Positions 9,288 through 54,944 are shown, numbered from the stretch's first letter. The stretch: DNA of 64,000 nucleotides from Candidatus Bathyarchaeota archaeon (GCA_963717465.1 OY970340.1:928001-992000); one strand, 5' to 3'. Notes: a model not told the origin generated them from the sequence alone. Translations and numbers: made by a program.

Positions 9288-11122
9288 TTGAATGGTTGGA
9301 ACGGCGTTTTTCTTAACGTAAACCTGAGTAAACAGAAGGCAGAAGCAGAGAGGTATACAGTTGACTTAGCGCAAAACTTCATGGGTGGAAGAGGCTTTGC
9401 CGTCAAAATTCTATGGGATAGACTTTCACCTGGAATCGACCCCTTGTCACCTGAAAATAAACTAATCTTTGCTACTGGTCCATTGACAGGAATCGGCCTG
9501 CCCAACAGTGGCAAGCTTGTTGTCGCATCCAAAAGTCCATTAACAGGAGGTTATGGTGATGGGAACATTGGAACAATGGCGGCTGTTCAAATGCGAAAGG
9601 CAGGCTACGACGCAATTATCATTGAAGGAAAAGCAAAAACGCCTGTTGTTCTGCACATTAAAGATAAAACCATCGAGTTTGTAGATGCCAAGGAATATTG
9701 GGGATTAACCGCGCCTAAAGCCGAAACTAAACTTCGAAAAATGTACACACGATCAACTGGAATCCTATCCATTGGTCCAGCCGGAGAAAACTTGGTCAAG
9801 TTTGCAGCTGTGGTTTCCCAAGAAGGTCGTGCAGGCGGAAGGCCTGGAATGGGTGCAGTTATGGGGTCTAAGAATTTGAAGGCTGTCGCGGTTGAAGGTA
9901 GCTACGAAATACCTCTTGGCCGACCAGAAAGAAATGAAACGATTAGCTGGCGATGGCTACCGTGAAGTCTTGACTAAACCAGTTTATCCGCTTTGGAAAA
10001 GGCAGGGGACAATGGGCACGGTGGAGTGGAGTCAAGCAAATTGCGTTCTGCCTACGTACAACTATAAGCAGGGAACATTTGACAAGGCCGACGAAGTGGG
10101 CGGTTACGCCATGGAAAAAATCAAGGTTAACAATCGCGGATGTCCACAATGTAACATGACCTGCGGAAACGTGGTTATCGACTCTGAGAAAAAAGAATCA
10201 GAGCTTGACTATGAAAATGTCGTAATGTTGGGTCCAAATATTGGTTTGGGAAATCTTGAAGAAATTGCTACTTTAAATCGAATGGCGGATGAGCTTGGGT
10301 TTGACTCGATTTCTCTTGGTAACGTGCTTGGTTTCGCAATGGAGGCTTCTGAAAAAGGATTAATCACTGAGGATGTTCCATGGGGAAGATTCCAAGAAAC
10401 GAAGAGTTTGATCGAGGATATAGCTTACAGGCGAGGTTTAGGCGCGACCTTAGCTGACGGGGTCAGGGCTGCATCAGCTGTTTTTGGAGAGGAATCTCGT
10501 GATTGGGCAATGCACATAAAGGGATTGGAAATAACAGCTTATGATTGCCACGCAGCGCCCGGGATGGCTTTGGCTTACGGCACAAGCTCCATAGGTGCAC
10601 ATCATAAAGACGCGTGGATAATTACTTGGGAAATCAAAATTGGCAGAGATAACTACGATGAATCCAAGATTGACAAGATTATTGATGCTCAGCGGATTCG
10701 CGGCGGAGTTTTCGAGGCGCTTACGGTTTGTAAATTTCCCAGTAACTCGCTTGGTCTTGAACTTGAATGGTACCATAAATACTTACGTGCTGCTACTGGA
10801 CAGGATTATTCTTTCAAGATGTTAAATCAAATTGCGGACCGAATACTGAACTTGATGAGGGCTTTCTGGGTACGAGAATCCGACGGAAAATGGAATCGGG
10901 AAATGGATTATCCTCCAGCAGAGATGGTTCAAGGAACCCTTGCCTGAGGGTCAATTGAAAGGCTCAAAGCTTGACAAGGGCAAGTACGATGAAATGCTTA
11001 GCATTTACTACCGAAAGAAAGGTTGGGATTCACGTGGAATACCAACAAAATCTACCTTGAAAAACCTTGGCTTGAATGATGAAGCAAAGCAGCTTGGTCA
11101 GTTTGTGAAATTGCAAGATTGA
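9288..11122 (+). CDS. aor: Tungsten-type aldehyde:ferredoxin oxidoreductase family protein, two frameshifts
   Basis: MGGRG, SKSPLTG, SIGPAGENLVKFA, GRPGMGAVMGSKNLKA, CPQCNMTC, YYRKKGWDSRGIPT. Confidence 0.92.
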
Positions 11123-12780: not shown

Positions 12781-13543
12781 GTGCCTGTTGCATTTATTAT
12801 TGGAACAGCTGGATCAGGAAAATCCCTTTTTACCGCTGCATTTAGTGAATGGTTAAAAATGTCAAAACAAGATGTTGCAGTCGTTAACTTGGACCCTGGA
12901 GTACTAAAACTTCCATATTCACCCGATGTCGACGTCCGCAATTACGTTGATGTTGGCAATTTAATGGAGCAATACGGTTTAGGGCCAAATGGTGCTTTAA
13001 TTATGGCTGCTGATTTAATAGCGGATGAAATTGAAAATTTAACAAGAGACATCGACGACAGCGAACGCCGACATAGTACTGGTCGATACTCCTGGGCAAA
13101 TGGAACTTTTCGCTTTCCGCGCAAGTGGCCCATACATCGTTAATGAGTTAACCAAAGAAAACAAGGCTCTGATTTACCTGTTTGACGCGGTTTTTTCCAT
13201 CAACCCGTTAAACTATGTTTCAAACATGTTTCTTTCCGCTGCAGTTTACAACAGGTTCCTAACCCCTCAAATTCACCTGCTTTCAAAATGCGATTTAATC
13301 CCTGAAAAAGACGTGAAAGCAATCACAACTTGGTCTGCAAACCCCAAAGCGCTTGAGGATGCAATAGAACAGAAACTTGAAGGCACAAAACGTTTATTCA
13401 GCCGCAACATGATGCAAGCAATCGACAAGCTTGGTTTAAAATTCCTTCTAAGTCCAGTCTCAGCGAAAACAAATCAGGGAATGGTGAACGTTAACACTAT
13501 ACTTGAACGACTCTTAACTGGTGGAGAAAAATATACCTTTTAG
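12781..13543 (+). CDS. GPN-loop GTPase, one frameshift
   Basis: GTAGSGKS, VNLDPG, YGLGPNGAL, DTPGQMELFAFR. Confidence 0.9.
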
Positions 13544-21041: not shown

Positions 21042-22717
21042 ATGTCCATCTTGGAAACTAAAGATCTTGTCTATACGTATCCTGGTGGTCAAAAGCCATC
21101 AATCGACGGAGTCTCCATAAAAGTGAAGAAAGGAGAATTCGTTTTGATTACTGGTCCAAGTGGCTGCGGGAAAACGACTTTGTGCCGATGTTTTAACGGT
21201 TTAATTCCTCATTTTTACCAAGGCGAATTACACGGCGAAATCCAAGTAACAGGATTAAACATTACTGAACACCCTACTCAAGAATTAGCACGGCATGTTG
21301 GCTTGGTTTTTCAAAATCCAGAAAATCAACTATTCGCTTTATCCGTCGAAAAAGACGTCGCGTTTGGCATGGAAAATCTCGGCGTACCCCGAAACGAAAT
21401 GCGCGAAAGAGTTGATTGGGCATTAAACATGACTGGAATCGCTAATTTACGCGAAAGATCGCCGCATGAGGTTTCTGGGGGTCAACAGCAACGTGTTGCA
21501 ATAGCATCGGTTCTTGCCATGAAACCGGAAATAATCGTTTTAGATGAACCCACATCTTTTCTTGACCCATTAAGCGCTGAAAAAATCTTTGAAGTTATCG
21601 CTGAACTTAACAAAAAGCAAGGCATAACAGTCATTCTAGTTGAGCATAGACTAGATTTAACGGCAAAGTACACTGACCATCTGATAGTGATGAATGAGGG
21701 AAAGGTTTGCTCTAGATGGAAATCCCCGAGAAATCCTTAATTCAGAGGAAACACGCCTAATCGGCGTCGGAATACCTAAAGCAACTCTCCTCTATCAAAT
21801 GCTAAAGAAAGACGGGTTAGAACTAGGAAAAACAATCCCGTTATCTTCTGAAGAATTGGCCGACCAACTGAGGGAGGCTTTGAGAGCATTGATTGAGGTT
21901 GAAGACATCCATTTTTCTTACCCTAGTCAAGTCGAGGCGCTAAAAGGCGTTTCATTGACTATAAATGATGGTGAATTTGTTGCCATCATGGGACAAAACG
22001 GTGCTGGAAAAACAACACTCGTTAAACACTTTAATGGTTTACTCAAGCCTTCACAAGGAAGCATCCGCGTTGACGGCGTTGAAACAAAAAAATCAAGCTG
22101 TTGCAGCGTTGTCTAGAAATATCGGTTTTGTTTTTCAGAATCCAGATCATCAGTTGTTCAGCGAAACCGTCGAAGAAGAAATAGGGTTCGCACTCAAGAA
22201 TTTTGGTTTTGAGCCAGAAACCATTGAAAAACAGATAACTTGGGCTCTAAACCTATTATCGTTAACGCAGTACAGGAAGACTTCACCGTTTATGCTCAGC
22301 GGGGGCGAACGCAAACGCGTTGCACTAGCCTCAGTGTTAGCTTGGGATCCTAAAACGTTGATTTTGGATGAGCCAACCATAGGCCAGGATCATGAACAAA
22401 AAGAAAAATTAAGGCAATTTATCATTCAAATGCAAACTCAGAAAAAAACAGTTGTTATAGTTACTCATGATGTGGAATTTGTTGCCGAATGCAACCCCCG
22501 TGTAATTTTCATGAAAGAAGGAAAAATCATCGGAGACGGCATTGGAAAAGAAATGCTTACAAATCAAGAACTACTTTCGCAATCATACATTGTTTTACCG
22601 CAAATAGCCCAAGTATTCAAAGATTTATCATCTTTAGGACTTCCAAGTGATATTATCGATATTTACGAAGCCAAAGATGTAATTTTGAAGGCTCAGGAGA
22701 GAAGAAGACAAAAATGA
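21042..22717 (+). CDS. ecfA: ECF transporter ATPases (two ABC domains; two genes or one fusion, obscured by frameshifts)
   Basis: GPSGCGKTT / GQNGAGKTT Walker A, FQNP, SGGQ/SGGE, LDEPT twice. Confidence 0.85.
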
Positions 22718-23511
22718 GCATTTTTGACGGTTTAAAATTCCGCAAAGTCTCCTCGCCTATTCATAATTTAGATCCTCGAATAAAATTCATTTATGTTATC
22801 GTAGTTTTTGTTGCTGCAATACTTTTTCCCGAGTTACTCCCGTTACTTGTTCTCTTTATAATTCAAATTCCGTTTGTTTTTATTGCTCATGTTCAAAAAC
22901 AGTGGGTTCGTTCGTTACGCGGGGCGGCGTTCTTAGCTGCTTTCATTTTCACAATCAATGTCGCTACAAGCTACTTCATAAATCCAAGTAATTTCATAGT
23001 GAATTACGCCTTATCCATCGAGAATGCAGCTGCAATGACTATGCGTTTTGTCGTGCTCGTTGAGTCTTTCTCAGTTTTCTTCTTGACAACATCCCCAGAT
23101 CATTTAGGCTTAGCATTGGAAAATTCACGCATGCCTTACGAATTCGCCTTTGCCTTTACAACAGCAGTTCGCTTCGTTCCAGTTCTCGCTGAGGAAGCCC
23201 AAACAATAATGGATGCCCAAAAAGCAAGAGGGTTAGAAATGGAGAAAGGCAATCTAATGAAAAGAATCAGAAATTACATTCCAGTGCTCATACCCTTAAT
23301 AGTCAGCGCCATTCGCAGAAGTTTAGAGCTGGCTGAAGCAATGGAGTCACGTGCCTGGGGCGCAACTAAAAAACGCACAAACTTATACATGCTTAAGCTT
23401 CACAAGGGAGATTACGCGTTAATCGCCATCACAATTGGAATTTTGGCCTCTGCTATTTACGTCTACTTATACGTGCATATCCCACTTATCAGCCACCTGC
23501 TTGGTTACTAA
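22714..23511 (+). CDS. ecfT: ECF transporter transmembrane component
   Basis: LDPRIK, RFVP, AQKARG, AEAMESRAW. Confidence 0.9.
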   Translation: MSIFDGLKFRKVSSPIHNLDPRIKFIYVIVVFVAAILFPELLPLLVLFIIQIPFVFIAHVQKQWVRSLRGAAFLAAFIFTINVATSYFINPSNFIVNYALSIENAAAMTMRFVVLVESFSVFFLTTSPDHLGLALENSRMPYEFAFAFTTAVRFVPVLAEEAQTIMDAQKARGLEMEKGNLMKRIRNYIPVLIPLIVSAIRRSLELAEAMESRAWGATKKRTNLYMLKLHKGDYALIAITIGILASAIYVYLYVHIPLISHLLGY

Positions 23512-23647
23512 CTCACAGTTTAAATGCTGCTCGATTCTCAACAAAATTGGACTAATATTAAATATCCCTGAAGAATTTATGATAATCAGAACTAATTGAA
23601 ATAATAGCCCAAAGACCTTTAAAAAGAACAAATGAAGGCTTTCAAGA

Positions 23648-23654
23648 GAGGTGA
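23648..23654 (+). promoter_or_regulatory. Shine-Dalgarno GAGGTGA for selD
   Basis: GAGGTGA 8 nt upstream of ATG 23663. Confidence 0.75.
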
Positions 23655-23662
23655 ATCCTAAA

Positions 23663-24682
23663 ATGAACTATAGACTTACAAAAGCTGTACCGGTACATGG
23701 ATGAAGCTGCAAGCTCCCACAGTACCAGCTGGATAAACTTCTCGTCAAAGCCGGCGTGTCAATAAAACTTGGCGGCGAGTTGTTAGCTGGACCTTGGGAG
23801 AACTCAAGCGTCATGAAAATTGCAGAAGACCTTGCTTTACTGAACACTCTGGATTTTTTCACTCCGATAGTCGACGAACCCGAGGTACAGGGCAGAATCG
23901 CAGCAAACAATGTTACCAGCGACATTTACGCGATGGGCGTATCGAAAATAGTAAACGTTTTGTCAATTATGGGCTTTCCAGAGGAAATGCCAAACAAGTT
24001 AGCTGTAGGAATGCTGAAAGGATTCGCCGATTTTTGCCGAGAAATTGGTGCGCCTCTTGTTGGTGGGCACACAATTCGAAATCCATGGCCTATTTTGGGC
24101 GGTGCGGCGACCGGTGTTGCCAGCCCAAATAAAATTGTTTATACACGAGGTGCAAAACCTGACGATTTGTTGGTTTTAACTAAACCTTTGGGAATTCAGC
24201 CTGCTATGGCGGCTTATCGAATGTGGAAAGAGAAAACAGGCAGGGAATTGCTAAGTGATATCCCGAAAAAAGTGGTTAAAGATGCAATCTCTGGGGCGAT
24301 TGAAGTAATGACATCTTCGAATAAACCTGTAGCGGAGGCAATGCAGCAGGTTCCAGTCCATGCTGCTACTGACATTACGGGTTTTGGTTTGAAGGGTCAC
24401 GCTGAAAACATGGCAAAACTTGGTCAAGTAAATATTGTATTCGATGAATTAGCAGTTATCCGTGGTACGCCTGCTTTGGCTGAGGTGCAGGGTTATCCTT
24501 TGCTTAAGGGTGATGCAAGCGAGACTGCAGGAGGCATGCTTATAGCTGTAGGCAAAGGGGATTTAGATGATTTGCTTAAAGAGTTAGAAAAACGTAAGGT
24601 TAGACACTTTGAAGTTGGCCGTGTAATGAAGGGTCAAGGTACAGTGAAAATAGGTAAGCAAGTGAAAATTTTAGAAGTTTAA
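23663..24682 (+). CDS. selD: Selenophosphate synthetase (selenide, water dikinase), a selenoprotein with UGA=Sec at codon 14 (23702-23704); 339 aa
   Basis: ATG 23663 is in frame with ORF 23756..24682 and reads MNYRLTKAVPVHG(TGA)SCKLP; also DFFTPIVDEP..QGRIAANN.TSDIYAMG, GGHT, LTKPLG, TDITGFGL.GH, ETAGGML. Confidence 0.95.
23714..23800 (+). promoter_or_regulatory. Candidate Sec-recoding stem-loop immediately downstream of the selD UGA
   Basis: Hand-folded nested pairs CUCCCA/UGGGAG, CCAGCU/AGCUGG, CUCGUC/GGCGAG, GCC/GGC; not computed. Confidence 0.4.
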
Positions 24683-24741
24683 TTTTTCGCGTTAGCATTT
24701 ATTAACATCTTAGCATAGTCAAAGAAGAGAGGAAGAAAAAA

Positions 24742-26940
24742 GTGCCAGTTTCTCGCTGCCCATATCTACTTATAATGTGCGGGTTGCCTGCTTCAGGCAA
24801 AACAACCATATGCAGAAAGGTGGCTGCGATTCTCGAGGACAAACATGGCTTACCAACTATGATAATCAGCTCTGACGATTTCAGGCGTATGGTTACGTAT
24901 TCTAGTTCGGGATTTCAGCCTGAAAAAGAGGCGGCTATTAAGCTTCTTTTTGAAAGAGCAATAAGTACTGCCTTGGAAAATTCTTTTTTAGTAATTTGCG
25001 ATGACATGAACTATTATAAGTCGATGAGGGCAGACTTAGGCAAAATCGCTAAAAACTCAAATTCAGATTACGACATTGTCTTTGTCAATACTCCTGTTGA
25101 CTTAGCGTTAAAATGGAATCAGGAGCGGGGCTTTACAGTCCCTAATTCGCTTATTGAGGAAATTAACCAAAAACTAGACGCGCCCAAAGGCGATTATAAA
25201 TGGGATACTGCAATGGCCACCGTTGATCCGAGCAAACAGAGTTTAGATGAAATGGCAAACGTAATCGTCGGCGGCATTATTAAAAGATTGGAGAATCCAG
25301 TCAGAAGTAAACCCAAAAAGATTGTCGAGGACGAAAAATCATTAAGAGCACGGGGTATCGAGAGAGAAACTCGGAAATCAATGATGGAAGTTATGACGCG
25401 GTTCAAAAATCCAGATTTGGCTATTTCCCTCTCAAAGATCCGCAAGGAAGTAGTTAAGAAAGCCTTGCTGGAAGGGGTTCAACCCACAGTTGCTGTGGAA
25501 ATGTTCCTAAGAGGTGCTGATGAAGTCACCAAAGGTTTCGCCATGCCCGAGACGAAAGGGTTGATTTCAGTCCATGTAGGCTTATTTGGTCACGTGGATC
25601 ACGGCAAAACCATGCTTGCTAGACGATTAACAGAGAAGCCTTCAACTGCAGCGTTGGATAAAGCTCCTGATTCAGCGCGGCGTGGTATGACCTTGGATAT
25701 GGGTTTCTCAGCTTTCTGGCTTGACAATTACATGGTGACACTTGTTGACCTGCCGGGGCATTTTAGCTTAATTAGGCATGCAGCTGCGGGAGCCAACATT
25801 ATCGATTCTGCAATACTTGTTGTCGCGGCGGATCTTGGCTTGCAGATTCAAAGTGTCGAGCATTTTTCAATAATTAAAAACTTGGGCATAAAGGATCTTG
25901 TCGTGGCTTTAAACAAGATTGATGCGGCTTCTCCTGACAGAATCGAGGAAGTAAAAAAGAAAATCGCGCTTATGCTGAAAGGAACACGATACGAGAACGC
26001 CAAGATAGTTGGAGTTTCAGGCTTAACAGGCGCTGGCATGGAGGAATTAAAGAATGAAATCAAGATGTCACTTAAGCCTCCCGTTAGGCAATGGGTTGGG
26101 CCTTTTAAGATGCCCATTGATCACGCATTCATAATCGCTGGAGTCGGCACCGTTTTAACTGGAACAATTCATCGTGGAAAAGTAAAACTGAAGGATACTG
26201 TTGAGATCAAGCCGATCGATAAGACTGGGCAAGTCAGGTCTTTGAGGTCTTTTGGTGAAGAAAAGGAAGAAGCAATCGCTGGTGACCGCGTTGGAATGGC
26301 TGTTAAGGATATTAAACCTGATGATGCTCACAGAGGTTTCATCGCTTGCACCCCAGGGTCAATTAAGTCTACCCAGCGTATGCTTGTAGAATTTGAAATG
26401 GACAAGTATTACAAGCGTTCGATGGAGCCCAAAAGTGGAGTAACAGCATTCGTTGGGTCCTATGAAGTGTTAGCAACTGCTACACCTGGAACACTTGAAA
26501 ACTCAAAATTCGTTGTTAAACCTTCAATCAGAGACGGAGAAAAATGCACAATTTATCTGGAACTTAAGGAGCCAGTGGTAGCGGAAAGCGGTGACCGTGT
26601 TCTACTGTTAAATACCGGGCTTCAAGCACGTGAATTCCGAATAATCGGCGGAGGAAGAATCATCGAAACAGAGAAAATACCTGAATTCTTCTCAAGAAAA
26701 GTCAAATCAGGAACCGTGAAGGAAAAGCAAACAGACAACAACTACATCATAAGCGGTTTAGCCAATGCTGAAGGCGCAGCTGTAAAGTATACGAAGAAGC
26801 AGATCACGACTGCAGCTGGCGTAAAAGGGGAAATTATCTCTCCTTCAAAATCAAGTGGAGATGTCGTTGCCACGTTTATCCAGCCGGTTCAGGTAGGCGA
26901 AAAAGTGTTTCTCGTTAAATATAAGAAACTGCAGGTTTGA
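24742..26940 (+). CDS. pstK-selB: Fusion of O-phosphoseryl-tRNA(Sec) kinase (aa ~1-265) and selenocysteine-specific elongation factor SelB (aa ~268-732)
   Basis: PSTK: CGLPASGKTT, SDDFR, ICDDMNYYKSMR.DL, YKWD, IERETRK. SelB: GLFGHVDHGKT, STAALDK.P.S.RRGMTLDMGFSAF, LVDLPGH, NKID, PIDHAF..AGVGTVLTGT, AGDRVG. Confidence 0.92.
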   Translation: MPVSRCPYLLIMCGLPASGKTTICRKVAAILEDKHGLPTMIISSDDFRRMVTYSSSGFQPEKEAAIKLLFERAISTALENSFLVICDDMNYYKSMRADLGKIAKNSNSDYDIVFVNTPVDLALKWNQERGFTVPNSLIEEINQKLDAPKGDYKWDTAMATVDPSKQSLDEMANVIVGGIIKRLENPVRSKPKKIVEDEKSLRARGIERETRKSMMEVMTRFKNPDLAISLSKIRKEVVKKALLEGVQPTVAVEMFLRGADEVTKGFAMPETKGLISVHVGLFGHVDHGKTMLARRLTEKPSTAALDKAPDSARRGMTLDMGFSAFWLDNYMVTLVDLPGHFSLIRHAAAGANIIDSAILVVAADLGLQIQSVEHFSIIKNLGIKDLVVALNKIDAASPDRIEEVKKKIALMLKGTRYENAKIVGVSGLTGAGMEELKNEIKMSLKPPVRQWVGPFKMPIDHAFIIAGVGTVLTGTIHRGKVKLKDTVEIKPIDKTGQVRSLRSFGEEKEEAIAGDRVGMAVKDIKPDDAHRGFIACTPGSIKSTQRMLVEFEMDKYYKRSMEPKSGVTAFVGSYEVLATATPGTLENSKFVVKPSIRDGEKCTIYLELKEPVVAESGDRVLLLNTGLQAREFRIIGGGRIIETEKIPEFFSRKVKSGTVKEKQTDNNYIISGLANAEGAAVKYTKKQITTAAGVKGEIISPSKSSGDVVATFIQPVQVGEKVFLVKYKKLQV

Positions 26941-27818
26941 GCGTTAAAGACTTGACTGAACGTACACGTTTTGGTCCAGCCGGTGTTCCTCCACCTTTTC
27001 GGATTCTTAGAGCCAAGTTATCGGATGTTCCTGGGCTTCTGCGGGAAGAGGGTCTTGATGCGTTTGAGTATCAAGCTTCACGTTGGGGTGCGACACCGCA
27101 AATCAAACAAGAGGATGCTGAGAAATTGGGCCTTGAAGCAAAGAAAAACGATGTCAAGCTCAGCGTTCATGGGTCCTACTTCATTAACCTATCTGGAAAA
27201 GATGATATCGTTGAAGCAAGCAAGCAACGTTTGATTGCTGGTGCAACCGCGGCGCAGTGGATGGGAGCATACGTCGTTGTTTTTCACTTGGGTTTTTATG
27301 GCCGATTTGAAAAGAGTTTTGCCTTCAAAAACTGCGTAACCGCTTTGAAAGACGTAAGTCAAACCTTAAAGAGTCTAGGAATCAAGGTGAAGCTCGGTCC
27401 AGAGACGATGGGCAGAAAATTTCAAGTCGGATCACTTGACGAAATATTAACGATTTGCCAAGAAGTTGAAGGCACACAGTTGGTTATTGATTGGGGCCAT
27501 CTCCATGCGAGAAATCAGGGCGCATTCAAAAAAATTGAGGATTTCCGATCAGCCGTTGAAAAAGTTGAGTACCAACTCGGAACAGAAGCGATAAAGAATA
27601 TGCACTGTCACTTCTCTAAAATCGAGTTCTCCAGCCAAGGAGAAAAGAGGCATCGAACATTGGAGGAAAAAAGGTATGGCCCAGACTTTGCGTTGCTTGC
27701 TCAAGTGATTGCGGATTTTAATTTGTATCCGACTTTGATTTGTGAAACGCCTCTTTTGGATATTGACGCAGTTAAAATGCGAGAAATTTATGATGGCGTA
27801 CTGAAAGGAAAAATGTAA
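26937..27818 (+). CDS. Endonuclease IV-like TIM-barrel protein
   Basis: RFGPAGVP, SVHGSYFINL, VFHLG, PETMG, IDWGHLHAR, HCHFSKIE, ICETP; 4-nt overlap with selB stop. Confidence 0.85.
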   Translation: MSVKDLTERTRFGPAGVPPPFRILRAKLSDVPGLLREEGLDAFEYQASRWGATPQIKQEDAEKLGLEAKKNDVKLSVHGSYFINLSGKDDIVEASKQRLIAGATAAQWMGAYVVVFHLGFYGRFEKSFAFKNCVTALKDVSQTLKSLGIKVKLGPETMGRKFQVGSLDEILTICQEVEGTQLVIDWGHLHARNQGAFKKIEDFRSAVEKVEYQLGTEAIKNMHCHFSKIEFSSQGEKRHRTLEEKRYGPDFALLAQVIADFNLYPTLICETPLLDIDAVKMREIYDGVLKGKM

Positions 27819-27938
27819 AAATAATCGTTGTCCTTTAGTTTAATGGTCTCAGCAGCAAGCTTGAAAATAAGCAATCCCTACAAAATCAATATCTTATTTT
27901 TGGCTCGACTGGAACTATCGCCTTACTGGCAAAAGCCT

Positions 27939-27985
27939 GACGACTTCATAGGCTTGTGCAGTTGAGGGATACTGAGAAGCGCTTT
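27939..27985. repeat. Diverged repeat copy A (hairpin + GAGGGATACTnnGAAGCGCTTT)
   Basis: 22-mer at 27964-27985 matches 29187-29208 at 20/22 positions; similarity extends upstream. Confidence 0.6.
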
Positions 27986-28082
27986 AATTTCGGCGCACCT
28001 TTAAAATATTAATTTAAAACAAGCAGCTAAGTAATTGCTCGTTCATAACTTTAATAGCTTTAGTTTCTTGGATTAAGTTAGG

Positions 28083-29012
28083 TTAATTCAAGAGTGTTTT
28101 CAATATTTTTGATTTTATTTCTCTGTTCGTGCGCAACTGCCAGATGGAAAGTATCTCAATTATCGATAGGGCAACAACCACATAAACGGAAATCCAATCA
28201 TATCCATACATCTGAGAAACAATATTGCCATTTGTTTCTTTTTGTAGAAAGGTGAATCCGATGTTATAATAGAAGAAAAATGGCAAATTTGTTATCGTAA
28301 TAAAAGCAATCGAACCGGCGATGAATTGCCATAAGCCCTTCCTATTATACCATAAAAGTAGGGGTAACGCAATAAGCGAACCACGAGGGTCAAATGCACT
28401 TAAGGCAAAGAAAATTGCTGAGGACCAAGGCTTTTTAGCAAAACCAAAGTAGAATGCGCCCACTATGAAAGCCGCTTGAATTACGTGTGCATTTCCCAAA
28501 GCATACCCGTCGTAGTAAAGTGGGCACAGTGAATGAAAAAATATGGAGAGAGAATTATATTCGTTAGGGGTTATAGGAAAGCCTGGCACTGGTGCAACTA
28601 TGACTAGAAAGGTTGCAACTGCACCTAGAATGAGGCTCTTATCTTTTACAAGCTTGTAAACAAAGAAAGCTAAAACAAAAATAGAGGCAGCCTGCAACAG
28701 ATCAAAAGCTGTAAAAGCATTCTGATAGCTAAATGCTAAAAAAGGTGAAAACCACAAGAAAAATGACGGTGCGTACTTGAAGACTTGAGGCGTTGGAGTT
28801 ATCGGATAGTCACCAGGATAAAACCCGGCATCATAGATAGCCGTTGGGTTATGAAACAGCCTCCATGCACCAATGTAATATGCTGAAAAATCTCGCGCTA
28901 GCTCCGTTGACATGGGACTAAAAGTTACAGGGTAAGCAATAATGAACGATAATATGTTTATCGTTAAAGCTATGATAATTACTGAAATTATCAGCAACTT
29001 TTTAGGAAGCAT
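28083..29012 (-). CDS. GT87-like (GT-C fold) membrane glycosyltransferase
   Basis: ARDFSAYY, IY, FKYAPSF, GN; many TM segments. Confidence 0.65.
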   Translation of the reverse strand: MLPKKLLIISVIIIALTINILSFIIAYPVTFSPMSTELARDFSAYYIGAWRLFHNPTAIYDAGFYPGDYPITPTPQVFKYAPSFFLWFSPFLAFSYQNAFTAFDLLQAASIFVLAFFVYKLVKDKSLILGAVATFLVIVAPVPGFPITPNEYNSLSIFFHSLCPLYYDGYALGNAHVIQAAFIVGAFYFGFAKKPWSSAIFFALSAFDPRGSLIALPLLLWYNRKGLWQFIAGSIAFITITNLPFFFYYNIGFTFLQKETNGNIVSQMYGYDWISVYVVVALSIIEILSIWQLRTNREIKSKILKTLLN

Positions 29013-33232: not shown

Positions 33233-33874
33233 TTAAGCCTTTGTTAGCCTAACACCCATATCAAATGCTTTCTTGCAGTCTAATGGAAAGACTTCTCTGC
33301 GTGTTTTTGTTTTATCCTCCACATCGAAATCATGGACATATTTTGAGTAATCGTTAAATTGGTAAGTGTTCACGACCACGAGCGATTCAGAAGCTCCACC
33401 AAATTGTCTGCTAAGCATCGCTTCATTAATCATTATTTGTTTGTCAAGTCCGAATAATTCTATCCTCTCTTCCGTACTGCCCATAGTGTAAATAAAGCCG
33501 CAATTTAATTTTTTAGGAGCAAGCGACTGATCCGACCCGTAAACCAAGTATGGGAACAATAATCGCTCAATAAAAGACCTCATCTCGCCAGACACTACTC
33601 CAATGTACACGGGGGAACCTAAAATCAATGCGTCTGCTTGTGCAACTTTTTCCAAAACCGGCGTCAAATCATCTTTATAAGCGCAACGCCCATAACTTTT
33701 TCCACCTTTGAGTTTGCAGGCAAAACAACTTGTGCAACCTTTAAAGTTCAAGTCGTAAAGGTGAATCAGCTCGGTTTGTGCTCCCGTCGAAGCGGCGCCC
33801 TCAAGAGCCTTGTTCAGCAAAGTCGCAGTATTCCAGGTTTTCCTTGGACTGCCATTAATGGCTATTACTTTCAT
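33233..33874 (-). CDS. Flavodoxin-like iron-sulfur flavoprotein (NADPH-dependent FMN reductase family)
   Basis: INGSPRK.WNT, GCTSCFAC...GRC..KDD, LGSPVY. Confidence 0.85.
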   Translation of the reverse strand: MKVIAINGSPRKTWNTATLLNKALEGAASTGAQTELIHLYDLNFKGCTSCFACKLKGGKSYGRCAYKDDLTPVLEKVAQADALILGSPVYIGVVSGEMRSFIERLLFPYLVYGSDQSLAPKKLNCGFIYTMGSTEERIELFGLDKQIMINEAMLSRQFGGASESLVVVNTYQFNDYSKYVHDFDVEDKTKTRREVFPLDCKKAFDMGVRLTKA

Positions 33875-33964
33875 TTTTATCACTTTACTTTGCTAGCGCT
33901 AAAAACATTATTTAAACCTATGTTAGATAACGTTTTTAACAATAGACATTTATGCTCTACAGGG

Positions 33965-35226
33965 ATGCATAGATTGGTTAAGCTAAAAGGATTCCAGAAA
34001 CTAACTTCTGTTGACGAAGCATTAAGCGTTTGGCTCGGTAAGCTTCAGGTGGAAAAACCTGTTGCGATTACGGTTCCGCTGAAAGAAGCTTTAGGTGGAG
34101 TTTTAGCTAAGGATTTAATTGCGGAAGATAATTTGCCGCGTTTTGATAGGTCCGCTATGGATGGTTATGCTGTTAAGTCTGAATACGCAGTTGGTGCATC
34201 ACAGTTTAAACCTGCAATTTTTAAAATTACTGAAGCGCAAGAGGTTAAAGTAAAAGAGGCCAAGCAAGTTTGGACGGGTAATCCGATACCGAAAGGTGCT
34301 GATGCAGTTGTTATGGTTGAGAACACTCGTAAGCGTGATGGGGAATTGGAAGTTTGGACGCCGCTTGCAGTAGATGAGAACGTATCAAGAAAAGGAGAAG
34401 ATGTCAAAAAAGGCGAAGTTATTGCAAAGGCTGGAACCCGTTTGAATCCATACCATATTGGTTTGGCTGCTGCACTTGGTGACAGTCAAGTTAGTGTTGC
34501 AAAAAAACCCATAATCAGCCATTGTTGCAACTGGAAACGAACTTGCAGAAGTAGGCTCTGAACCGTTGGCTGGTCAAATTTATGATTCAAATAAAGTCAT
34601 GCTTTCCGCTATGTGCTTAGGAATTAGGTGCTGAACCGCTTGATTTAGGCATAGTAAAAGATGATTTGGAAGAAATTATATCGAAAATCAAGGAAGCCTT
34701 GAAGGTTTCTGATGCGGTCATTACCACAGGTGGAACCAGTGTTGGAGGTTTAGATTTAGTGCCTGATGCTGTAAACAAGATTGGTAAACCTGGTGTTGTT
34801 GCTCACGGGTTAGCCTTAAAACCTGCAATGCCCACAGGAGTCGGCATATTAGATGATAAACCAATCATGATTCTGTCAGGTAACCCAGTGGCATCAATTA
34901 TCGGTTTTGAAGTATTTGGCAGACCATTAATCTCCAGAATGCTGGGAATGGAAAAAGAAGAACCAAGACCAGTTCTAAAAGCCGTCATGACAAGAAAAAT
35001 AGCCACTACCTTGGGCAGAAAAACCTTTGTTCGCGTTAACGTGTCTGAGAAAAACGGTGAATTAGTCGCAGAACCTGTCAGTGCAAAGGGTTCAGGCGCC
35101 ATATCCACCATGACAAGGGGTAACGGGTTTATTATAGTTCCAGAAAGCAGGGAAGGCGTAGGAGAAGGCGAAACAGTAACCGTTCACATGTATGGTCTGG
35201 TGGAGGCTACAAAACAGAATGTTTAG
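33965..35226 (+). CDS. moeA: Molybdopterin molybdotransferase MoeA, copy 1, frameshifted
   Basis: LPRFDRSAMDGYAV, TGNPIPKGADAVVMVE, TTGGTSVG, SGNP. Confidence 0.9.
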
Positions 35227-36464
35227 GAAGCTAATGACGGTTGATGAAGCAAAAAAAACTATTGACAGTTATTTTAAACCCACAATTTTAGGCGATGAAT
35301 ATGCCCCTTTAATAGAGGCTTACAATCGAGTTTTAAACGAAGATGTAACTTCTTCTCTTGATATTCCCCCGTTTAACCGTTCAACCGTTGACGGTTACGC
35401 AGTTAAGGCTGAGGATACTTTTGGAGCAGAAGAAAATAAACCTGCAAAATTAAAGATTGTTGGTTCCGTGGTTATCGGAGAAACTCCAAAAGTAGTTGTA
35501 AAAAAAGGTGAAACTGCGGAAATCGTAACTGGCGCACCCATTCCTGAAGGCGCAGATGCAGTTGTTATGGTAGAGGACACAGAGAGAAAAGATGATTACC
35601 TGCAAGTTTTTTCCTCAGTAACCAAGAATGCGAACATCCAAAAGAAAGGCTCAGACATCAAGAATGGAGAAAAAGTGCTTAAGATCAGGGCAGGTTTTAG
35701 GGACATCAGAAATCGGAGTTATAGCTGCTTTAGGTCTAACTAAAGTTAAGGTTCTTAAAGCTCCAATAGTTGCAGTTATTTCAACTGGTGGAGAAGTAAC
35801 TGAACTTGGAAAAGAATTGCCTGCAGGAAAAATCTATGACATTAACGCCTACAGCGTAAGCGCTGCAGTAATTGAGAGTGGGGGAAAACCAGTTTATTTG
35901 GCGCAGTTCCATGATGATAAGGCTGCATTGACGAAGGCTTTGGAGTCTGCTTTGGCTTCCTGCTGATGTTGTAATTACTTCGGGCGGCGTTTCTGTTGGT
36001 CCCAAGGATTTTACTCCGCAAGTTTTAGATTCGCTTGGTAAACCTGGCGTTGTTGTTTGCGGTGTTGCTTTAAAGCCTGGGAAACCAACGACTGTTGCGT
36101 TTGTTAACGGTAAACCTGTTATTTCGTTGCCTGGTCACCCAACGTCTGCATTGCTTGTTTTCCATTTGTTCGCTAAACAAATTATTCAGCGGTTAGCAGG
36201 TAGATTTTCAGCGCAAGACAAGGTTGTGAAGGCAGTGGCTGGTTCAAGAATGTTTTCAGCCAAGGGTAGACGAACTTTTGTTATGGTAAAGTTAACTCGT
36301 GACAAGAACAATCGATTGGTAGCTGAACAAGTTGAATCGGGCCGTCAGGAGCTATAACGACACTTGCTAAAGCAGATGGATTTGTCGAGGTTGCAGAAAA
36401 CAACCAGTTTATCGACGCTGACGAAGAAGTTGATGTCGTATTGCTCAGAGATGTCCAGATTTAG
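35219..36464 (+). CDS. moeA: Molybdopterin molybdotransferase MoeA, copy 2, frameshifted
   Basis: PPFNRSTVDGYAV, TGAPIPEGADAVVMVE, ISTGGEV, IYDINAY, KPGKPT, LPGHPTSA. Confidence 0.9.
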
Positions 36465-39866: not shown

Positions 39867-41553
39867 TTAGTAGGGCATTCCACCCATTCCGCCGCCGGGC
39901 ATTCCAGGCATTCCTGGCGATATTCCTTGTGGCATGCCGCCTGGGGGTATCGGTGGCATTCTTCCGCCGCCTTTGACGCTGATTAGGTCGTCGATTTTCA
40001 GAATCATGTTTGTTGCTTCTACGGCTGATTTGATGACTTGTTGCTTAACGCGTAATGGTTCAAGAACTTTCATGTCAAACATGTTCTTGATTTTACCTGA
40101 TTCAACATCGATGCCGAAGTATTTGCTGTCTGCTTTCTCATGTTCTGCTCTTAATGCAACCATGATATCAATCGGGTCCAATCCAGCGTTTTCCGCCAAG
40201 GTCAAAGGAATTGATTCAACTGCTTCAGCAAAAGCTTCAACTGCTAATTGCTCTCGTCCACCAACTTTAACTGCGAAGCTTCGCAGGTTTTTGGCCAATT
40301 CTGCTTCTGGTGCACCACCGCCTGCAACTATCTTTCCGTCTTCTATTGCGTTTCTTACGACGCATAAGCCATCGTGTAGGGAGCGTTCTGCTTCGTCGAT
40401 TAAGTTGTTTGTTGCGCCTCTGATAACTATTGTTACTGCCTTTGGATTCTTGCAATCTCGTATGTAGACAAGTTTGTCGTCGCCGATTTTTACTTCTTCA
40501 ACTTTCTTTGCTTTTCCAAGCACATCAGGAGTTAAATCAGTTACTTGTGCAACTATTTTTCCGCCTGTTGCTCTGGCTAACTTTTCCATGTCTCCGCTGC
40601 TTATGGATTTAACTGCTAAAATACCTGCTTTGCCTAGAAAATGCTGTACCATGTCGTCAAGGCCTTTCTCGCAGAAAAGAACATTTGCACCTGACTTGAC
40701 AACTGACAGTCACCATGTCTTTGAGCATTCGCTCCTCTTCATCTAGGAACATTTTCATTTGCTCTGGGCTTTCGATGTTTATTTTTGCTTCAAACTCTGT
40801 TTTTTCAATCTCCATTTTGGCATTCAGCAAAGCGATTTTTGCGCCGTCAATGAATTTTGGCATTGTTGGAGCAGCAATTTCTTTGTCAAGCACCATGCCT
40901 TTAACAAGTTCCGTTTCATCCAAGCTTTGACCATGCTTCTTAACAACTTTTATCAAATCAATATCAGCAACATATCTGTCCTCAACTTTTTCCGAAACCT
41001 GTTTAACAGCGGTGACAATCATCTTGGCAAAATGATCTTGGGCAATGTTTATGCCCTTGCTCGATAAGGATGTAATTGCTACCGTACGCAAAGTTTCTTC
41101 GTCATCTATGTTTACTGGAATCGCTATTTTCAGTAGAATTTCTTGAGCTTTTTCACTCGCCTTTTTGTAGCCGTCTATAATGACTGTTGAATGTATATTC
41201 TTATCAAGTAAACCTTCAGCTTTTGCAAGCAGTTCTCCCGCTAAAACCACTGCTGTCGTTGTGCCGTCACCAACTTCATTGTCCTGTGCTTTTGCAACTT
41301 CAACCAGCATTTTTGCTGCCGGATGTTGAACATCCAGTTCCTTCATTATTGTTGCGCCGTCATTAGTTATTGCAACGTCGCCTGTGCTGCTGACTAACAT
41401 TTTGTCCATGCCGCATGGACCAAGTGTAGTCTTTACAGTTTCGGCAACTATTTTCGCTGCCATTATATTGTTCCTTTGGGCTTCGCGTCCTGTTGATCTG
41501 CCCGTACCTTCTTTTAAGACAAGAATTGGAACGGTTCCTCCACCTGTTGACAT
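39867..41553 (-). CDS. ths: Thermosome (group II chaperonin) subunit, frameshifted near 40660-40710
   Basis: TTLGP.GMDKML, TNDGATI, GDGTTT, AGGGAPE, GGM-rich tail. Confidence 0.95.
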
Positions 41554-41748
41554 ATTTATCACCAAATATTTTCCTTTACAAATTCCTGTATACTAATCGT
41601 AGGAACAATTAAACCTTGAAATATAAATTTTTCCCAACAGCAATGCTGTTAAGTAAGTTACATAGCATTTCTGGAGTTCATTAAGCTTTTTGAACAAACT
41701 TTTTTTAAACAACTTTTGAATTGATATAAATTCAAAGAGCAGTTAATT

Positions 41749-44656: not shown

Positions 44657-45325
44657 CTATCTTATCATCGTGCAAATGGCGGTTTGCCCATTTAAAACAG
44701 CTTCAATTCTTTCAGGATGCAAACCATTAACAACACAACACTCAATTCCGCTTTTCAAAAGAATTTTAGGCAGATGCTTATCAACACTTGTCCGCTTACC
44801 CAAACTCAAAAGCTGTTCCGCAGTTAATTCGTGGATCAATTCTACTTGTTTGCTCTTCTTTGGATCTTTATCGTACACGCCATCGACATCCGTTATCAAT
44901 AGGACTCTTCTCGTATTCAATTTTTTTGCAATATGGACTGCAATAGAATCAGAAGTAACATCCCAAGAATTCTCTAAATCGTCATCATCAAAAACCATCA
45001 TAGAAGGAAGCAAAATGGATAATTTGCCCGATTCCAGAATAACTTTCACGGATTCTAAGCTGTCTGCAGGTCTTGAATTATGAATTAAGTCTGTGAGCAA
45101 TAAGCCATATTGATCCATGCCTAAAATCGCCATTCTATGCGACGTTTGGTTCGAAAGAGCGAAAGTTTTATCCATTTTTCTTACAACATCTGCGAATTCT
45201 CCACCGCCAGGAATTATTATCATTGCGTGTTTTTCTGCTAATTCGCTTAGCTTAAGGCTTAGCTGGCGTAATTTTTTTGGTTTAAGCGTTAGACTGCCGC
45301 CCACTTTAACAACTGTTATTTCCAT
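44657..45325 (-). CDS. mfnE: Amino-acid-kinase family, 5-(aminomethyl)-3-furanmethanol phosphate kinase
   Basis: VKVGGSL, PGGGEFADVVR, H.MAI.GMDQYG, SWDVTSDSIA, TDVDG; cluster context. Confidence 0.85.
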   Translation of the reverse strand: MEITVVKVGGSLTLKPKKLRQLSLKLSELAEKHAMIIIPGGGEFADVVRKMDKTFALSNQTSHRMAILGMDQYGLLLTDLIHNSRPADSLESVKVILESGKLSILLPSMMVFDDDDLENSWDVTSDSIAVHIAKKLNTRRVLLITDVDGVYDKDPKKSKQVELIHELTAEQLLSLGKRTSVDKHLPKILLKSGIECCVVNGLHPERIEAVLNGQTAICTMIR

Positions 45326-46383
45326 TTGATTTTTTCTCCCGCAAGTCTATTCGCAGTCAATAGGGCAACGCCTACTGCTGGAGACGCTAAAACAGCGGTT
45401 CTATGCATTAGATCGCTTAAATCAATAATTTTGTCAACGCCGATTGATTGGGCAGCTTTTTTAGCAATGAACTCTTTGCCTAAACCAGTGATTACCACTG
45501 GAACTTTCTCGGAGGTAAGCGATTTTAATCGTGAATAAACTTGATTTAAGCCTTCAGAAACTTGATGAATTTGCATGTCAGAAATGCACTGTGCTATTTC
45601 CGTAATTTCTTGCTTTGTTAACATTTCAGTGTCGGCGCATACTACTCTGGCAAGCCTTGCCGACGTTTCTTTTCTGGTTTTTCCTCTTCCATCAGCTGTT
45701 TCGCTGATATAGTCTTTAACGGTTATGTGATTTAATATTAAGTGGGCATCGCCGCTTAACGCAAAAAGCTCTGATGAAACTCTTGCTACACAATTTTTTA
45801 TGGGAATGAAGTTGACGATTGTTGCAACGTTAGTACGCAAGCTTCCAGTATACACTAATTCTCCACACATCAGCTTAGCCAAGTCAGTTTTGCCTTTCAC
45901 TGAAACTTGCCCGTTTACGATGGGAATTATGCTGGTGCTGGTGCTTCCAACATCAACCACAACGCAATTCGTGATATGCTGAGCTACTAGCCAGCCTGTT
46001 GCTGCCCAATTTGCCGAAGCAACTTTCAATGGCTCCTTTTTGGCTTTATTTATCGATAGCAGTTCTGCATCAACGTTTAAAACATAAATGGGGACATTAC
46101 CAAAAGCCTGCTTAGCGCTCGACAGGATATGGTTGACTCCTTCACGTTTAGTTTGGTACGCGTCGGATAACTCCGCCGTCATCGTTAAGCCCACGCCGTC
46201 AAGATTTTTTCCGCAAAAACTTTTCTTAATCCTCAAAAGTGTGTCTGCAAGTTCGTCGCGTTTCTTCCAAACTGGAAAATATTTCACGGCAATTTTTGCA
46301 TCTTTAACTTTGCCTTTTTTCGTGCTTATGCATGCAACCTTAATGTTGGCGCCTCCAATATCCCAGCCCGTAACATTTACCAA
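45316..46383 (-). CDS. mfnF: Methanofuran synthase MfnF (hydantoinase A-like)
   Basis: GWDIGGANIK, TMTAELSDAY.TKREGV, SANWAAT, VDVGSTST, ELVYTG.LRT, ETADGR, RLAR.VCAD. Confidence 0.9.
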   Translation of the reverse strand: MVNVTGWDIGGANIKVACISTKKGKVKDAKIAVKYFPVWKKRDELADTLLRIKKSFCGKNLDGVGLTMTAELSDAYQTKREGVNHILSSAKQAFGNVPIYVLNVDAELLSINKAKKEPLKVASANWAATGWLVAQHITNCVVVDVGSTSTSIIPIVNGQVSVKGKTDLAKLMCGELVYTGSLRTNVATIVNFIPIKNCVARVSSELFALSGDAHLILNHITVKDYISETADGRGKTRKETSARLARVVCADTEMLTKQEITEIAQCISDMQIHQVSEGLNQVYSRLKSLTSEKVPVVITGLGKEFIAKKAAQSIGVDKIIDLSDLMHRTAVLASPAVGVALLTANRLAGEKIKWK

Positions 46384-47618
46384 TCCTGTTTTCCCCCGTT
46401 GATAATGTTGAGATAGCGCTTTTTAACTTCTTTCAGACGCGACTCTGCTTCTTCAGCCGAATCAGTCTTGGAGGCGATGAGTGCAAAGGATTTTGAATCG
46501 CAAACTGGAAACGGCGGCGAAACAACTTCATTCATATGAAAAGTCTTCAAGAGAACATCAAGCGTCGGTTTTACAGTTTCTATTTTCGAAAAACAAGCAC
46601 ACCCTTGGCATCCAATCTCTTTGGGCAACTCGCTTTTCGGAACAGCATCCAATAACGCTTGAGCAACGTTAAACTTGGCAACCCTGCTCAGACCAACGTA
46701 GGAAGTCGTTAACCTGGGATTAACATCCACAACTACAGGCTCCTTCTCTGTCAAGATTAAGTCAACCCCAAAATACCCTCTTAAGCCTGGGAAAATCCCC
46801 GCGATTTTTTCTGCTATTGCGAATGCTTCTTGTTTTTGTGGATGAACAAGCGGAACTGTTCCGCCATTATAATTTGAAACTTCATCAGAATACCCCAAAG
46901 TTATATCTTGACTGTTTAAACTCAGTGGTAACGCTTTTTTCTCTGTTGCAATTAAGCTTACGCTCACTGCTTTACCCTTAATTAGCTCTTGTATTACGAA
47001 CTGTCTGCCAGAAGATTCAACTTTTATCTTCTTTATAGCTTTAGGTATTTGAGCGTCTTTTTCGACAACGCTTAATCCTCCGCAGCTCACCCCATCCAAC
47101 GGCTTAAAAATAACCGGGTAGTCAAACATGCTTTTCATGTGTGTTTTAATTTTTTCTAAATCATCAAGAACATTGCATGTTATTGTTTGGGGTGTTGGCA
47201 CACCTGCTTTTTCTAAGGTTTCATATAGAACGGCTTTGTTGGCAACTTTTTGAATAACGCTGCTTTGGCAGTTAAGCGATGCTACGCCGGAGTGCTCAAC
47301 GGTTTCGATAATTGATTTTAATGTTTGAGCCGTTTCAGGTGCAATCACGTAAGCAGCATCAGAGGCACTGAGGGCTTTTGCGAAGGCTTCTCGCGCAAAT
47401 TGAGAAGGAGGAAACTGGTATTATGCATTCAACGTCTAATAAAGGATTAAACTGTGAAATTCTTGAGTCAAGCAAAATCGTGACTTTGTGCCCTGCACCT
47501 TTAAGGTCGGAAACTAGGGTTCTTAGCATGCCGTATCCTTCACTTAGAACACTTGGTGGAATCGGCTTTGGCCTGCAAATCCACCTCCGCTGGCGTGCTC
47601 GTAAACCAGAAGCCTCAA
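46377..47618 (-). CDS. mfnD: ATP-grasp tyramine--L-glutamate ligase, frameshifted
   Basis: Start TTG 47618 MRLLVYEHASGGG, SEGYGML, IAPET, KPLDGVSC, GYFGVD, DVNPRLTTSYVGL. Confidence 0.88.
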
Positions 47619-47666
47619 ATGCGTATTCTCCACGAATCGAAAAGGCGTCAATTGTTAAAGCTTTTT

Positions 47667-48792: not shown

Positions 48793-48796
48793 ATAA

Positions 48797-54545: not shown

Positions 54546-54944
54546 TTACTGCCAGATTCTTTTCACCCAATCAATTCTATCGAAATCCTTATCATTAGAA
54601 TAGATTTCGGTGATTTCATATTTCTTCATGATTTGAAGTGAAAGTGAATCAACAAAATCTATCTGCTTATCGCTGACATCTTTCAGAGCTGGAATAAAAC
54701 TATCCCATAAACTCCCAAGTTTATCCAAGGATAAATAAGAATTTATTGCCAAAAGAAAAGTGTGAACTTCTTTTTTGCGGTTATTATACTCTAACCAATC
54801 CACAACTTCCTGGATTACGGCTGTGCTTGTGGCTGCCTGCTCACCTTTTTCGATTCGCTCAAGAATTTTCCGAGAAATTTCAAAGTCTTCTTTAGGAGAT
54901 TTGATTAGGGTATAGATGAAAACGTTCGCATCTACAAACCGCAT
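54546..54944 (-). CDS. vapC: VapC-type PIN-domain toxin
   Basis: FVDANVFIY, V..EV, DFVD, IYSNDKDFD. Confidence 0.88.
   Translation of the reverse strand: MRFVDANVFIYTLIKSPKEDFEISRKILERIEKGEQAATSTAVIQEVVDWLEYNNRKKEVHTFLLAINSYLSLDKLGSLWDSFIPALKDVSDKQIDFVDSLSLQIMKKYEITEIYSNDKDFDRIDWVKRIWQ

Follow-up and report, generated by a model that had tools for sequence, protein, structure and literature searches.

How an archaeon can translate a gene that supplies selenocysteine (Sec) synthesis and also carries, within its own reading frame, a codon to be read as Sec is the question raised by positions 23663-26940 of the DNA analysed here, a stretch of 64,000 nucleotides (nt; hereafter, the window) that corresponds to 928001-992000 of the single contig (C1; 3,053,889 bp) of a genome of ~3.05 Mb, designated G000 and belonging to genus g1. 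Two plus-strand genes lie between these positions, namely selD, for selenophosphate synthetase, and one open reading frame (ORF) in which the kinase PSTK is fused to the elongation factor aSelB. To judge from the sequence, they very probably form the working core of an archaeal-type Sec system in a Bathyarchaeia genome. A first-pass annotation of the window had reported three adjacent genes on one strand, for SelD, PSTK and SelB: the plus strand and the positions were right, and the assignment of the genes to the Sec machinery is borne out by matches to the SelD, KTI12/PSTK and aSelB families, but the genes are two in number, PSTK and SelB being one ORF. The fusion had therefore been missed, and selD, although recognised, had been described without mention of its own Sec codon. 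The features of the stretch are the following:

23617..23627, + strand: TATA-like A/T-rich box CTTTAAAAAGA, ~36 nt 5' of the selD ATG, read from the sequence
23651-23655, + strand: Shine-Dalgarno-like GGTGA, read from the sequence
23663..24685, + strand: selD, selenophosphate synthetase, 339 amino acids (aa), Sec at residue 14 (NF010705, 353.8 bits)
23702..23704, + strand: in-frame TGA read as Sec, from the orthologue alignment
23714..23800, + strand: 87-nt stem-loop in the selD coding sequence, candidate recoding element, from the minimum free energy (MFE) fold
24686..24741, + strand: selD-to-fusion spacer, 56 nt, A/T-rich, with no stable structure
24742..26940, + strand: PSTK-aSelB fusion ORF, 732 aa, no internal stop (ORF listing, table 11)
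24742..25470, + strand: PSTK half (aa 1-243), with a P-loop kinase and a C-terminal tRNA-binding domain (KTI12, 3adb)
25567..26940, + strand: aSelB half (aa 276-732), with the GTPase domain plus domains II-IV (TIGR00475, 4ac9, AF2/Foldseek)

The selenocysteine genes of the window

With translation table 11, the ORF listing gives only a 308-aa ORF at 23756-24682 on the plus strand; when the TGA is read as Sec (U), the frame extends upstream to the ATG at 23663, with the stop codon at 24683-24685. The product is matched along its full length by the NF010705 model of SelD, well above the cut-off of 291 bits, and by TIGR00476 (246.9 bits versus a cut-off of 125), and it is the sole SelD of the genome as searched throughout with tblastn. 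The TGA falls in the motif VHG-U-SCK, where a Sec or Cys residue, with a lysine two residues on, lies in the N-terminal glycine-rich loop, and we take this Sec14/Cys position to be that of the catalytic residue. Among the orthologous loci (L044-L053 and L057-L071), 22 orthologues have a Cys codon (TGC/TGT) aligned here and six others a TGA, within the conserved context VPVHG[U/C]SCKLP. On this alignment, selD is itself a predicted selenoprotein gene and, thus, a client of the system to which it belongs.

The two halves of the fusion each retain the domains and motifs of the respective family. The PSTK half is recognised by Pfam KTI12 (120.7 bits, aa 9-219) and aligns with the Methanocaldococcus jannaschii PSTK of known structure (3adb; phmmer E 1e-27, aa 8-241 versus 12-237 of 259), both domains of which are covered; the P-loop of the kinase is intact (GLPASGKTT), and its G19 and K20, along with the D87 D88 N90 Y91 S94 R96 block, do not vary among 54 fusion proteins. 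The aSelB half matches TIGR00475 (270.9 bits versus a cut-off of 242.25), contains the Pfam domains GTP_EFTU, GTP_EFTU_D2 and aSelB_III (PF21440, 31.2 bits), and aligns over all four domains with Methanococcus maripaludis SelB (4ac9; phmmer E 2.4e-79, aa 276-727), with the GTPase motifs G1-G4 all intact (GHVDHGKT, RGMTLD, DLPGH and NKID). An AlphaFold2 model of the fusion, built with 54 family members (mean predicted local distance difference test score, pLDDT, 85.9; predicted template modelling score, pTM, 0.66), finds its best Foldseek match in 4ac9/4acb, with a target template modelling score (TMt) of 0.77-0.83, which confirms the aSelB fold. A second copy of the fusion, 54% identical, is found at C1:2827369-2829725, adjoining a second tRNA-Sec gene, and there all four G motifs are altered (GHCKHGKT, no G2 threonine, EMPGN and SKID). 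As far as the motifs tell, the fusion of the window is the only PSTK-aSelB copy of the genome with an intact GTPase.

The Bathyarchaeia host, which had been proposed from the flanking genes, is now supported by the fusion itself: proteins 68-70% identical to it bear the NCBI names 'Candidatus Bathyarchaeota archaeon' or 'Candidatus Bathyarchaeia archaeon', and two of these relatives were assigned to genomes G333 and G345, which belong to the same GTDB family as G000. The sole locus returned by a search of genome contigs with the fusion bears the title 'Candidatus Nanoarchaeia archaeon', a label that is not trusted because proteins 69-70% identical carry Bathyarchaeota or Bathyarchaeia names.

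The rest of the pathway and its clients

The other components, which the first-pass annotation had expected elsewhere in the genome, are both present on the same contig. SepSecS (400.2 bits) is encoded at 845799-846923, and 20 bp from it, at 845693-845779, lies a first tRNA-Sec gene (71.8 bits); the second is at 2829638-2829725 (61.8 bits; gathering score 47 for both). The two genes are called tRNA-SeC(tca) by ARAGORN, with a UCA anticodon, and both tRNAs would adopt the 9/4 fold, with a 9-bp acceptor and a 4-bp T stem, G73 and a U:U mismatch (U6:U67) as the eighth pair of the acceptor. Both genes are followed in the DNA by G and CCA (C1:845693-845783 and C1:2829634-2829725); archaeal tRNA-Sec genes are stated not to encode the CCA tail in the text available of a 2022 review (PMC9499178).

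From the families to which the proteins belong, the pathway would proceed as follows: (i) SelD would make selenophosphate from selenide and ATP; (ii) the PSTK half of the fusion would phosphorylate Ser-tRNA(Sec); (iii) SepSecS, encoded ~106 kb upstream beside tRNA-Sec, would convert the resulting O-phosphoseryl-tRNA(Sec), Sep-tRNA(Sec), to Sec-tRNA(Sec); and (iv) the aSelB half would bind Sec-tRNA(Sec) with GTP and deliver it to UGA codons.

Such codons are indeed available. Eleven paralogues of an enzyme of ~770 aa have a UGA at one aligned position, and an HdrA-like gene has a UGA that is aligned to Cys in eight paralogue hits. These two cases alone are used here out of a read-through ORF scan of the genome that gave 2451 candidates, 322 of them past the codon score, the scan being noisy owing to antisense ORFs and TGG-to-TGA pseudogenes. 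Taken together, SepSecS, the two tRNA-Secs and the 11-member family of UGA-containing enzymes argue that the Sec system is in use in this genome.

Some points weigh against a working Sec core at 23663-26940. The PSTK half scores 148.2 bits with TIGR03574, the NCBIfam equivalog model of PSTK, below its cut-off of 290.5; this model was built on stand-alone PSTKs. A search for sequencing runs listed no RNA run; the same search gave two DNA runs, whose word shares of 0.08 and 0.05 are uninformative on expression or habitat. Finally, many genes of the window are split, probably by indel errors, and claims that hang on single bases therefore need care.

The stem-loop after the UGA codon of selD

The gene selD feeds the whole system yet depends on it, and what it offers to the ribosome is the most stable predicted RNA structure in all 64 kb, right after its UGA, with no signal in the untranslated regions (UTRs). 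Between the UGA and the 5' arm of the predicted stem-loop there are 9 nt. A 90-nt stretch that starts at 23712 has an MFE of -37.3 kcal/mol, and no other of the 355 windows in selD and the fusion is as stable; across the 64 kb, only one of 1421 windows of 90 nt reaches this value (mean -15.1, standard deviation 4.8). The predicted pairings include CUCCCA/UGGGAG and CCAGCUGG/AGCUGG. The Sec-type selD orthologues of G333 and G345 share the same architecture, with ~-22 kcal/mol when scored on the G000 structure, and the 22 Cys-type orthologues give -8.7 to +17.6 kcal/mol on that structure. More distant Sec-type selD genes likewise have a stem on the K-L-P codons, with its start 6-8 nt downstream of the UGA and with a long loop in G170 but a short one in G039, G230 and L067; in the 11 paralogous enzyme genes, a hairpin follows the UGA at a distance of 6 nt.

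The 87-nt stem-loop is read as a real RNA structure. That the selD UGA is recoded with its help, and not with that of a selenocysteine insertion sequence (SECIS) in the 3'-UTR, is a question on which the scales are level, in view also of several observations that speak against a recoding role. In an RNAalifold analysis of the four close Sec-type selD sequences, a compensatory change is found in only one of 27 predicted pairs, i.e. there is almost no covariation; the codons on which the outer stems fall (KLP and PWEN) are conserved; the paired probability of 0.75 in Sec-type versus 0.55 in Cys-type genes (Mann-Whitney p 0.007) was calculated with relatedness ignored; and, in a test with 60-nt windows, the region at the UGA is unremarkable (percentile 0.66), the signal being seen only with windows of at least 90 nt.

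The alternative is that the stem-loop is either incidental or an auxiliary similar to the Sec redefinition element (SRE) of eukaryotes, Sec insertion being directed by a distal archaeal SECIS that has escaped recognition. The weak covariation would fit this explanation, and precedents exist both for archaeal SECIS elements in UTRs, with a variable working distance in M. maripaludis (in the text available of PMC9622424 and PMC13188914), and for the stimulation of read-through by a stem-loop immediately downstream of the UGA, as described for the SRE in the accessible part of PMC2248747. However, the places in which a distal element would be expected to lie appear devoid of structure. The 3' spacer (24683-24745) folds with only -4.5 kcal/mol (z-score +1.08), which gives no 3'-UTR SECIS structure, and neither the 5' leader of selD (z +0.33) nor the region after the nfo-like gene that follows the fusion (z -0.95) is unusually structured. 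At gathering thresholds, Rfam finds no SECIS in the whole window, where the eL15 leader is the only match, and, at E <= 10, it returns for 23550-24800 two chance-level matches and no bacterial SECIS family. The UTR stem-loop by which the canonical GAA_A-type archaeal SECIS is defined is, likewise, not seen at selD, although no search with a dedicated GAA_A descriptor was made. The hairpin of the 11 paralogous enzyme genes also speaks against this alternative. A distal SECIS with a dispensable or auxiliary stem-loop is, on these grounds, conceivable but rather unlikely.

To return to the stem-loop as the recoding signal, its position invites comparison with known systems. The textbook view is that the signal for Sec insertion lies in the coding sequence in bacteria and in the UTR in archaea and eukaryotes. 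The bacterial SECIS is a coding-sequence hairpin that closely follows the UGA and is bound by the C-terminal winged-helix domains of SelB. The element of selD resembles it in being a coding-sequence stem-loop few nt after the UGA, but it differs in the spacer, which is here of 6-9 nt, in the length of 87 nt and in the lack of a match to the bacterial SECIS families of Rfam; furthermore, the aSelB of the fusion has no winged-helix extension, since the match with 4ac9 extends to the end of the sequence. In eukaryotes, the distance from the UGA to the start of the SRE is 6 nt. The SRE is similar to the element of selD as a conserved coding-sequence stem-loop directly 3' of a Sec UGA, as in SEPN1 (in the part of PMC2248747 available), but it acts with a 3'-UTR SECIS, whereas no distal element was found for selD. 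The Methanococcales provide the reference for the proteins: their PSTK and aSelB (3adb and 4ac9) belong to the same families, with the same domain order in each half, and the aSelB domains I-IV are 34% identical in the structural alignment; however, the genes are separate there and fused in G000, and the Methanococcales have GAA_A-type SECIS elements in UTRs (in the accessible text of PMC13188914), where selD of G000 shows no UTR structure.

It is tempting, though we would not bet on it, to see here a third arrangement for Sec insertion, in which the archaeal PSTK, SepSecS and aSelB would work with bacterial-style stem-loops of the coding region placed 6-9 nt after the UGA, the 87-nt element of selD being one of them, and the fusion would be a factor adapted to the local signal, whose extra RNA-binding half might take over the role of the winged-helix domains. 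Should the fold be the recoding signal, the division between domains of life into coding-sequence and UTR signals would need revising. To our knowledge, the SECIS-binding factor of archaea is still unknown, and, in the same event, it could be sought in the fusion protein.

Published systems and the purpose of the fusion

The first-pass annotation had inferred an expansion of the genetic code in a lineage in which it is seldom described, and the novelty so claimed is not supported. Sec use and the fused PSTK-aSelB of Bathyarchaeota are already known, and the locus repeats a published fact. As far as the main text of the article goes, Mukai et al. (Front Genet 2022; PMC8762117) document a fused PSTK-aSelB for "diverse Bathyarchaeota" and for one Archaeoglobus species, show a typical Sec gene cluster of Bathyarchaeota and report the U6:U67 tRNA-Sec in a wetland lineage; the fusion system and the U6:U67 tRNA-Sec are repeated in the relevant part of the 2022 review (PMC9499178). 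With the fusion of Bathyarchaeota already in print, the novelty of the trait in the lineage is therefore gone, as the first-pass annotation had itself foreseen for the case of a prior description. The words SECIS, SelD and hairpin have no occurrence each in the main text of PMC8762117; Bathyarchaeota are not mentioned in the available text of either a survey of archaeal selenoproteomes from 2024 (PMC11227280) or a 2026 review (PMC13188914); and a full-text literature search for selenoproteins or SECIS elements of Bathyarchaeota/Bathyarchaeia gave nothing further.

The system of G000 is like that of Mukai et al., in what their main text describes, in having PSTK and aSelB in one ORF, SepSecS beside tRNA-Sec, the U6:U67 mismatch and a Bathyarchaeia host. 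It is unlike it in that the fusion lies ~106 kb from SepSecS and tRNA-Sec, downstream of a selD on the same strand, an order found in none of 16 relatives' loci, and in that G000 has neither SepRS nor SepCysS. The latter difference bears on the purpose of the fusion. The proposal of PMC8762117, repeated in PMC9499178 (both as represented in the text available), is that, in organisms without SepCysE, the fusion keeps SepCysS from gaining access to Sep-tRNA(Sec). In this genome, the best hits are 50.2 bits for SepRS, against a cut-off of 380.65, and 44.1 bits for SepCysS, against 365.25, with SepCysE not included in the search, and a normal CysRS is present (505.8 bits); the estimated genome completeness of 88% leaves a small gap for these absences. 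With both SepRS and SepCysS absent, there is nothing to shield against, and the published rationale therefore does not apply to G000, for which shielding is an improbable explanation. The fusion may, instead, serve to hand over the tRNA from the kinase to the elongation factor, or it may have a role in reading a local RNA signal. Thus, the fusion persists where SepRS and SepCysS are not found.

The insertion site and the integrity of the assembly

The genes that flank the stretch are as follows:

22714..23511, + strand: cbiQ, T component of a CbiQ-type energy-coupling factor (ECF) transporter, left flank (Pfam CbiQ, 120.3 bits)
26952..27818, + strand: nfo-like gene of the apurinic/apyrimidinic (AP) endonuclease 2/xylose-isomerase fold, right flank (Pfam AP_endonuc_2, 90.6 bits)

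In five of five genomes of the same genus, cbiQ directly adjoins the nfo-like gene, with gaps of 58-225 bp; three of them have no fusion, and the other two have it elsewhere, beside SepSecS. In G000, selD and the fusion form a 3.4-kb insertion between the two genes. In the loci of 16 relatives' fusions, SepSecS is a neighbour in 14 and SelD is nearby in four, in no case upstream on the same strand. The nfo-like gene starts with a TTG at 26952, 11 nt after the fusion stop, and the N-terminus so obtained (MTERTRF) compares well with that of the relatives (M[TAS]E[HR]TRF). The relatives' gene has an A/T-rich box of its own and an ATG; this upstream box is missing in G000, where the nfo-like gene is now probably co-transcribed with the Sec genes. 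The A/T-rich boxes before the relatives' nfo-like gene are comparable with the one upstream of selD, which, together with the GGTGA site, may be regarded as a candidate element. A scan of 23300-28300 for sigma-70 promoters and terminators found sites no commoner than in shuffled sequences, with a consensus that is inapplicable to archaea.

An insertion absent from five of five congeners could also be explained by an assembly chimera, in which the 3.4-kb segment would come from another organism of the sample. The G+C content of the segment (0.437 versus a genome mean of 0.401, in the top 7% of windows) and the many split genes of the window, hence an imperfect assembly, would go along with it. 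However, the tetranucleotide signature of the segment is an ordinary one for this genome, in which 51% of 204 windows are at least as distant, and, as far as this composition is concerned, nothing points to the joins at 23.5 and 27 kb that the first-pass annotation had considered; moreover, the right junction is tidy, with the nfo-like start so close to the fusion stop. Above all, a chimera is very unlikely because the genome, with the segment removed, would be left with SepSecS, two tRNA-Secs and more than a dozen UGA-containing genes, and without SelD or any SelB with intact GTPase motifs.

The split genes are pairs or triplets of adjacent ORFs that match consecutive parts of one Pfam family, and include AOR, a GPN-loop ATPase, ECF ATPases, MoeA and the thermosome, the halves of which are in different frames. 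Among others, the spans are:

9288-10944: split gene
12781-13540: split gene
21042-22714: split gene
33638-35740: split gene
39870-41565: split gene

They look like the product of errors in a long-read assembly, probably indels, or else like pseudogenes, and they may explain why a single-contig genome has a completeness estimate of only 88%.

Distribution and origin of the module

The Sec trait is rare and patchy and behaves like a transferable add-on to the genetic code. Within the GTDB genus of G000, 10 of 120 genomes have a strong match to the fusion (six of 73 when only high-quality genomes are counted), as do 12 of 401 genomes in an even sample of the class (nine of 219 of high quality). 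A large protein collection contains 390 proteins with E <= 1e-20 to the fusion; nearly all of the 120 matches listed are of ~730 aa with both halves, and the closest relatives among the matches listed are 90% (P0001) and 86% (P0002) identical.

How the module reached its present hosts was addressed by comparing the identities of the fusion with those of the nfo-like gene in G098, G094, G071 and G122, of genus g1, and in G333, G463 and G345, of genus g21. Between the other g1 genomes and the g21 genomes, the fusions are 82-90% identical, with 82-92% across the seven genomes just named, and the nfo-like genes 57-65%, whereas G000 gives 69-71% with the others for the fusion and 63-75% for the nfo-like gene. 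In the SelD tree (25 rows; G094, G348, L070 and L071 omitted, and L068, L072 and L073 lacking the N-terminus), all Cys-type proteins form one clade of 18 rows, with support of 100/99 and both genera mixed, and the Sec-type SelDs, that of G000 included, branch below it. A quick version of the fusion tree (23 rows) groups G000 with the 90% and 86% identical relatives, outside a clade with support of 100 that holds all the other g1 and g21 fusions. On these sequences, the Sec module has clearly moved between genera g1 and g21, and the high identities point to a recent lateral spread; the change from Sec to Cys in SelD seems to have happened once and then to have spread.

Whether the selD and PSTK-aSelB genes of G000 were themselves acquired by lateral transfer from another Bathyarchaeia lineage, and not inherited and then relocated, is a separate matter. 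Several features lend themselves to such an explanation: the junction of cbiQ with the nfo-like gene is intact in the five congeners, including the two Sec users with the fusion beside SepSecS; G000 stays outside the tight clade of mixed g1 and g21 members in both trees; only 10 of the 120 genomes of the genus have the fusion; and the other g1 and g21 fusions are far more alike than their nfo-like genes, as expected of a module that moves between genera. On the other hand, the tetranucleotide signature of the insert is typical of the genome, and the identity of the fusion to those of congeners (69-71%) is near that of the nfo-like gene (68-75%), as would fit the vertical descent of a divergent species, with the qualification that the yardstick is one housekeeping gene and the fusion tree a quick one. 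Lateral acquisition by G000 is, on this balance, possible, but we lean away from it.

Two loci of relatives deserve a separate mention. In L040 (G348:C14:49000-68000), the fusion is broken by a TAA and the SelD match is in two pieces, which could reflect a decaying Sec system or assembly errors. In L012 (G036:C39), a stand-alone PSTK-like ORF of 256 aa at 1370-2140 shares 38% identity with the PSTK half, the gene that comes after it being unrelated, and genome G036 has no full-length match to the fusion.

Other features of the window

Besides the genes discussed above, the window contains:

44660-49540, - strand: methanofuran-biosynthesis-like cluster (Pfam scan)
54549-55224, - strand: PIN-domain gene overlapping a MazE/AbrB-type antitoxin gene (Pfam scan)
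58156-58203, - strand: 'eL15-Euryarchaeota ribosomal protein leader' (Rfam, 46 bits; gathering score 33.7)

Among the flanking genes that the first-pass annotation had named, AOR and the methanofuran-like cluster are present, while eL13 and TFE were not found in the Pfam scan of the window, in which eL37ae, eL15 and a TFS-type zinc ribbon are seen instead. The cluster comprises genes for an amino-acid kinase, a hydantoinase-A-like protein, an ATP-grasp protein, a pyridoxal phosphate (PLP)-dependent decarboxylase and a 4-(hydroxymethyl)-2-furancarboxaldehyde-phosphate (4-HFC-P) synthase, the last two being apparently truncated. The PIN-domain and MazE/AbrB-type genes are likely a type II toxin-antitoxin pair. 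The leader, of euryarchaeal type, is found at the 5' end of the eL15 gene, yet the genome is not euryarchaeal.

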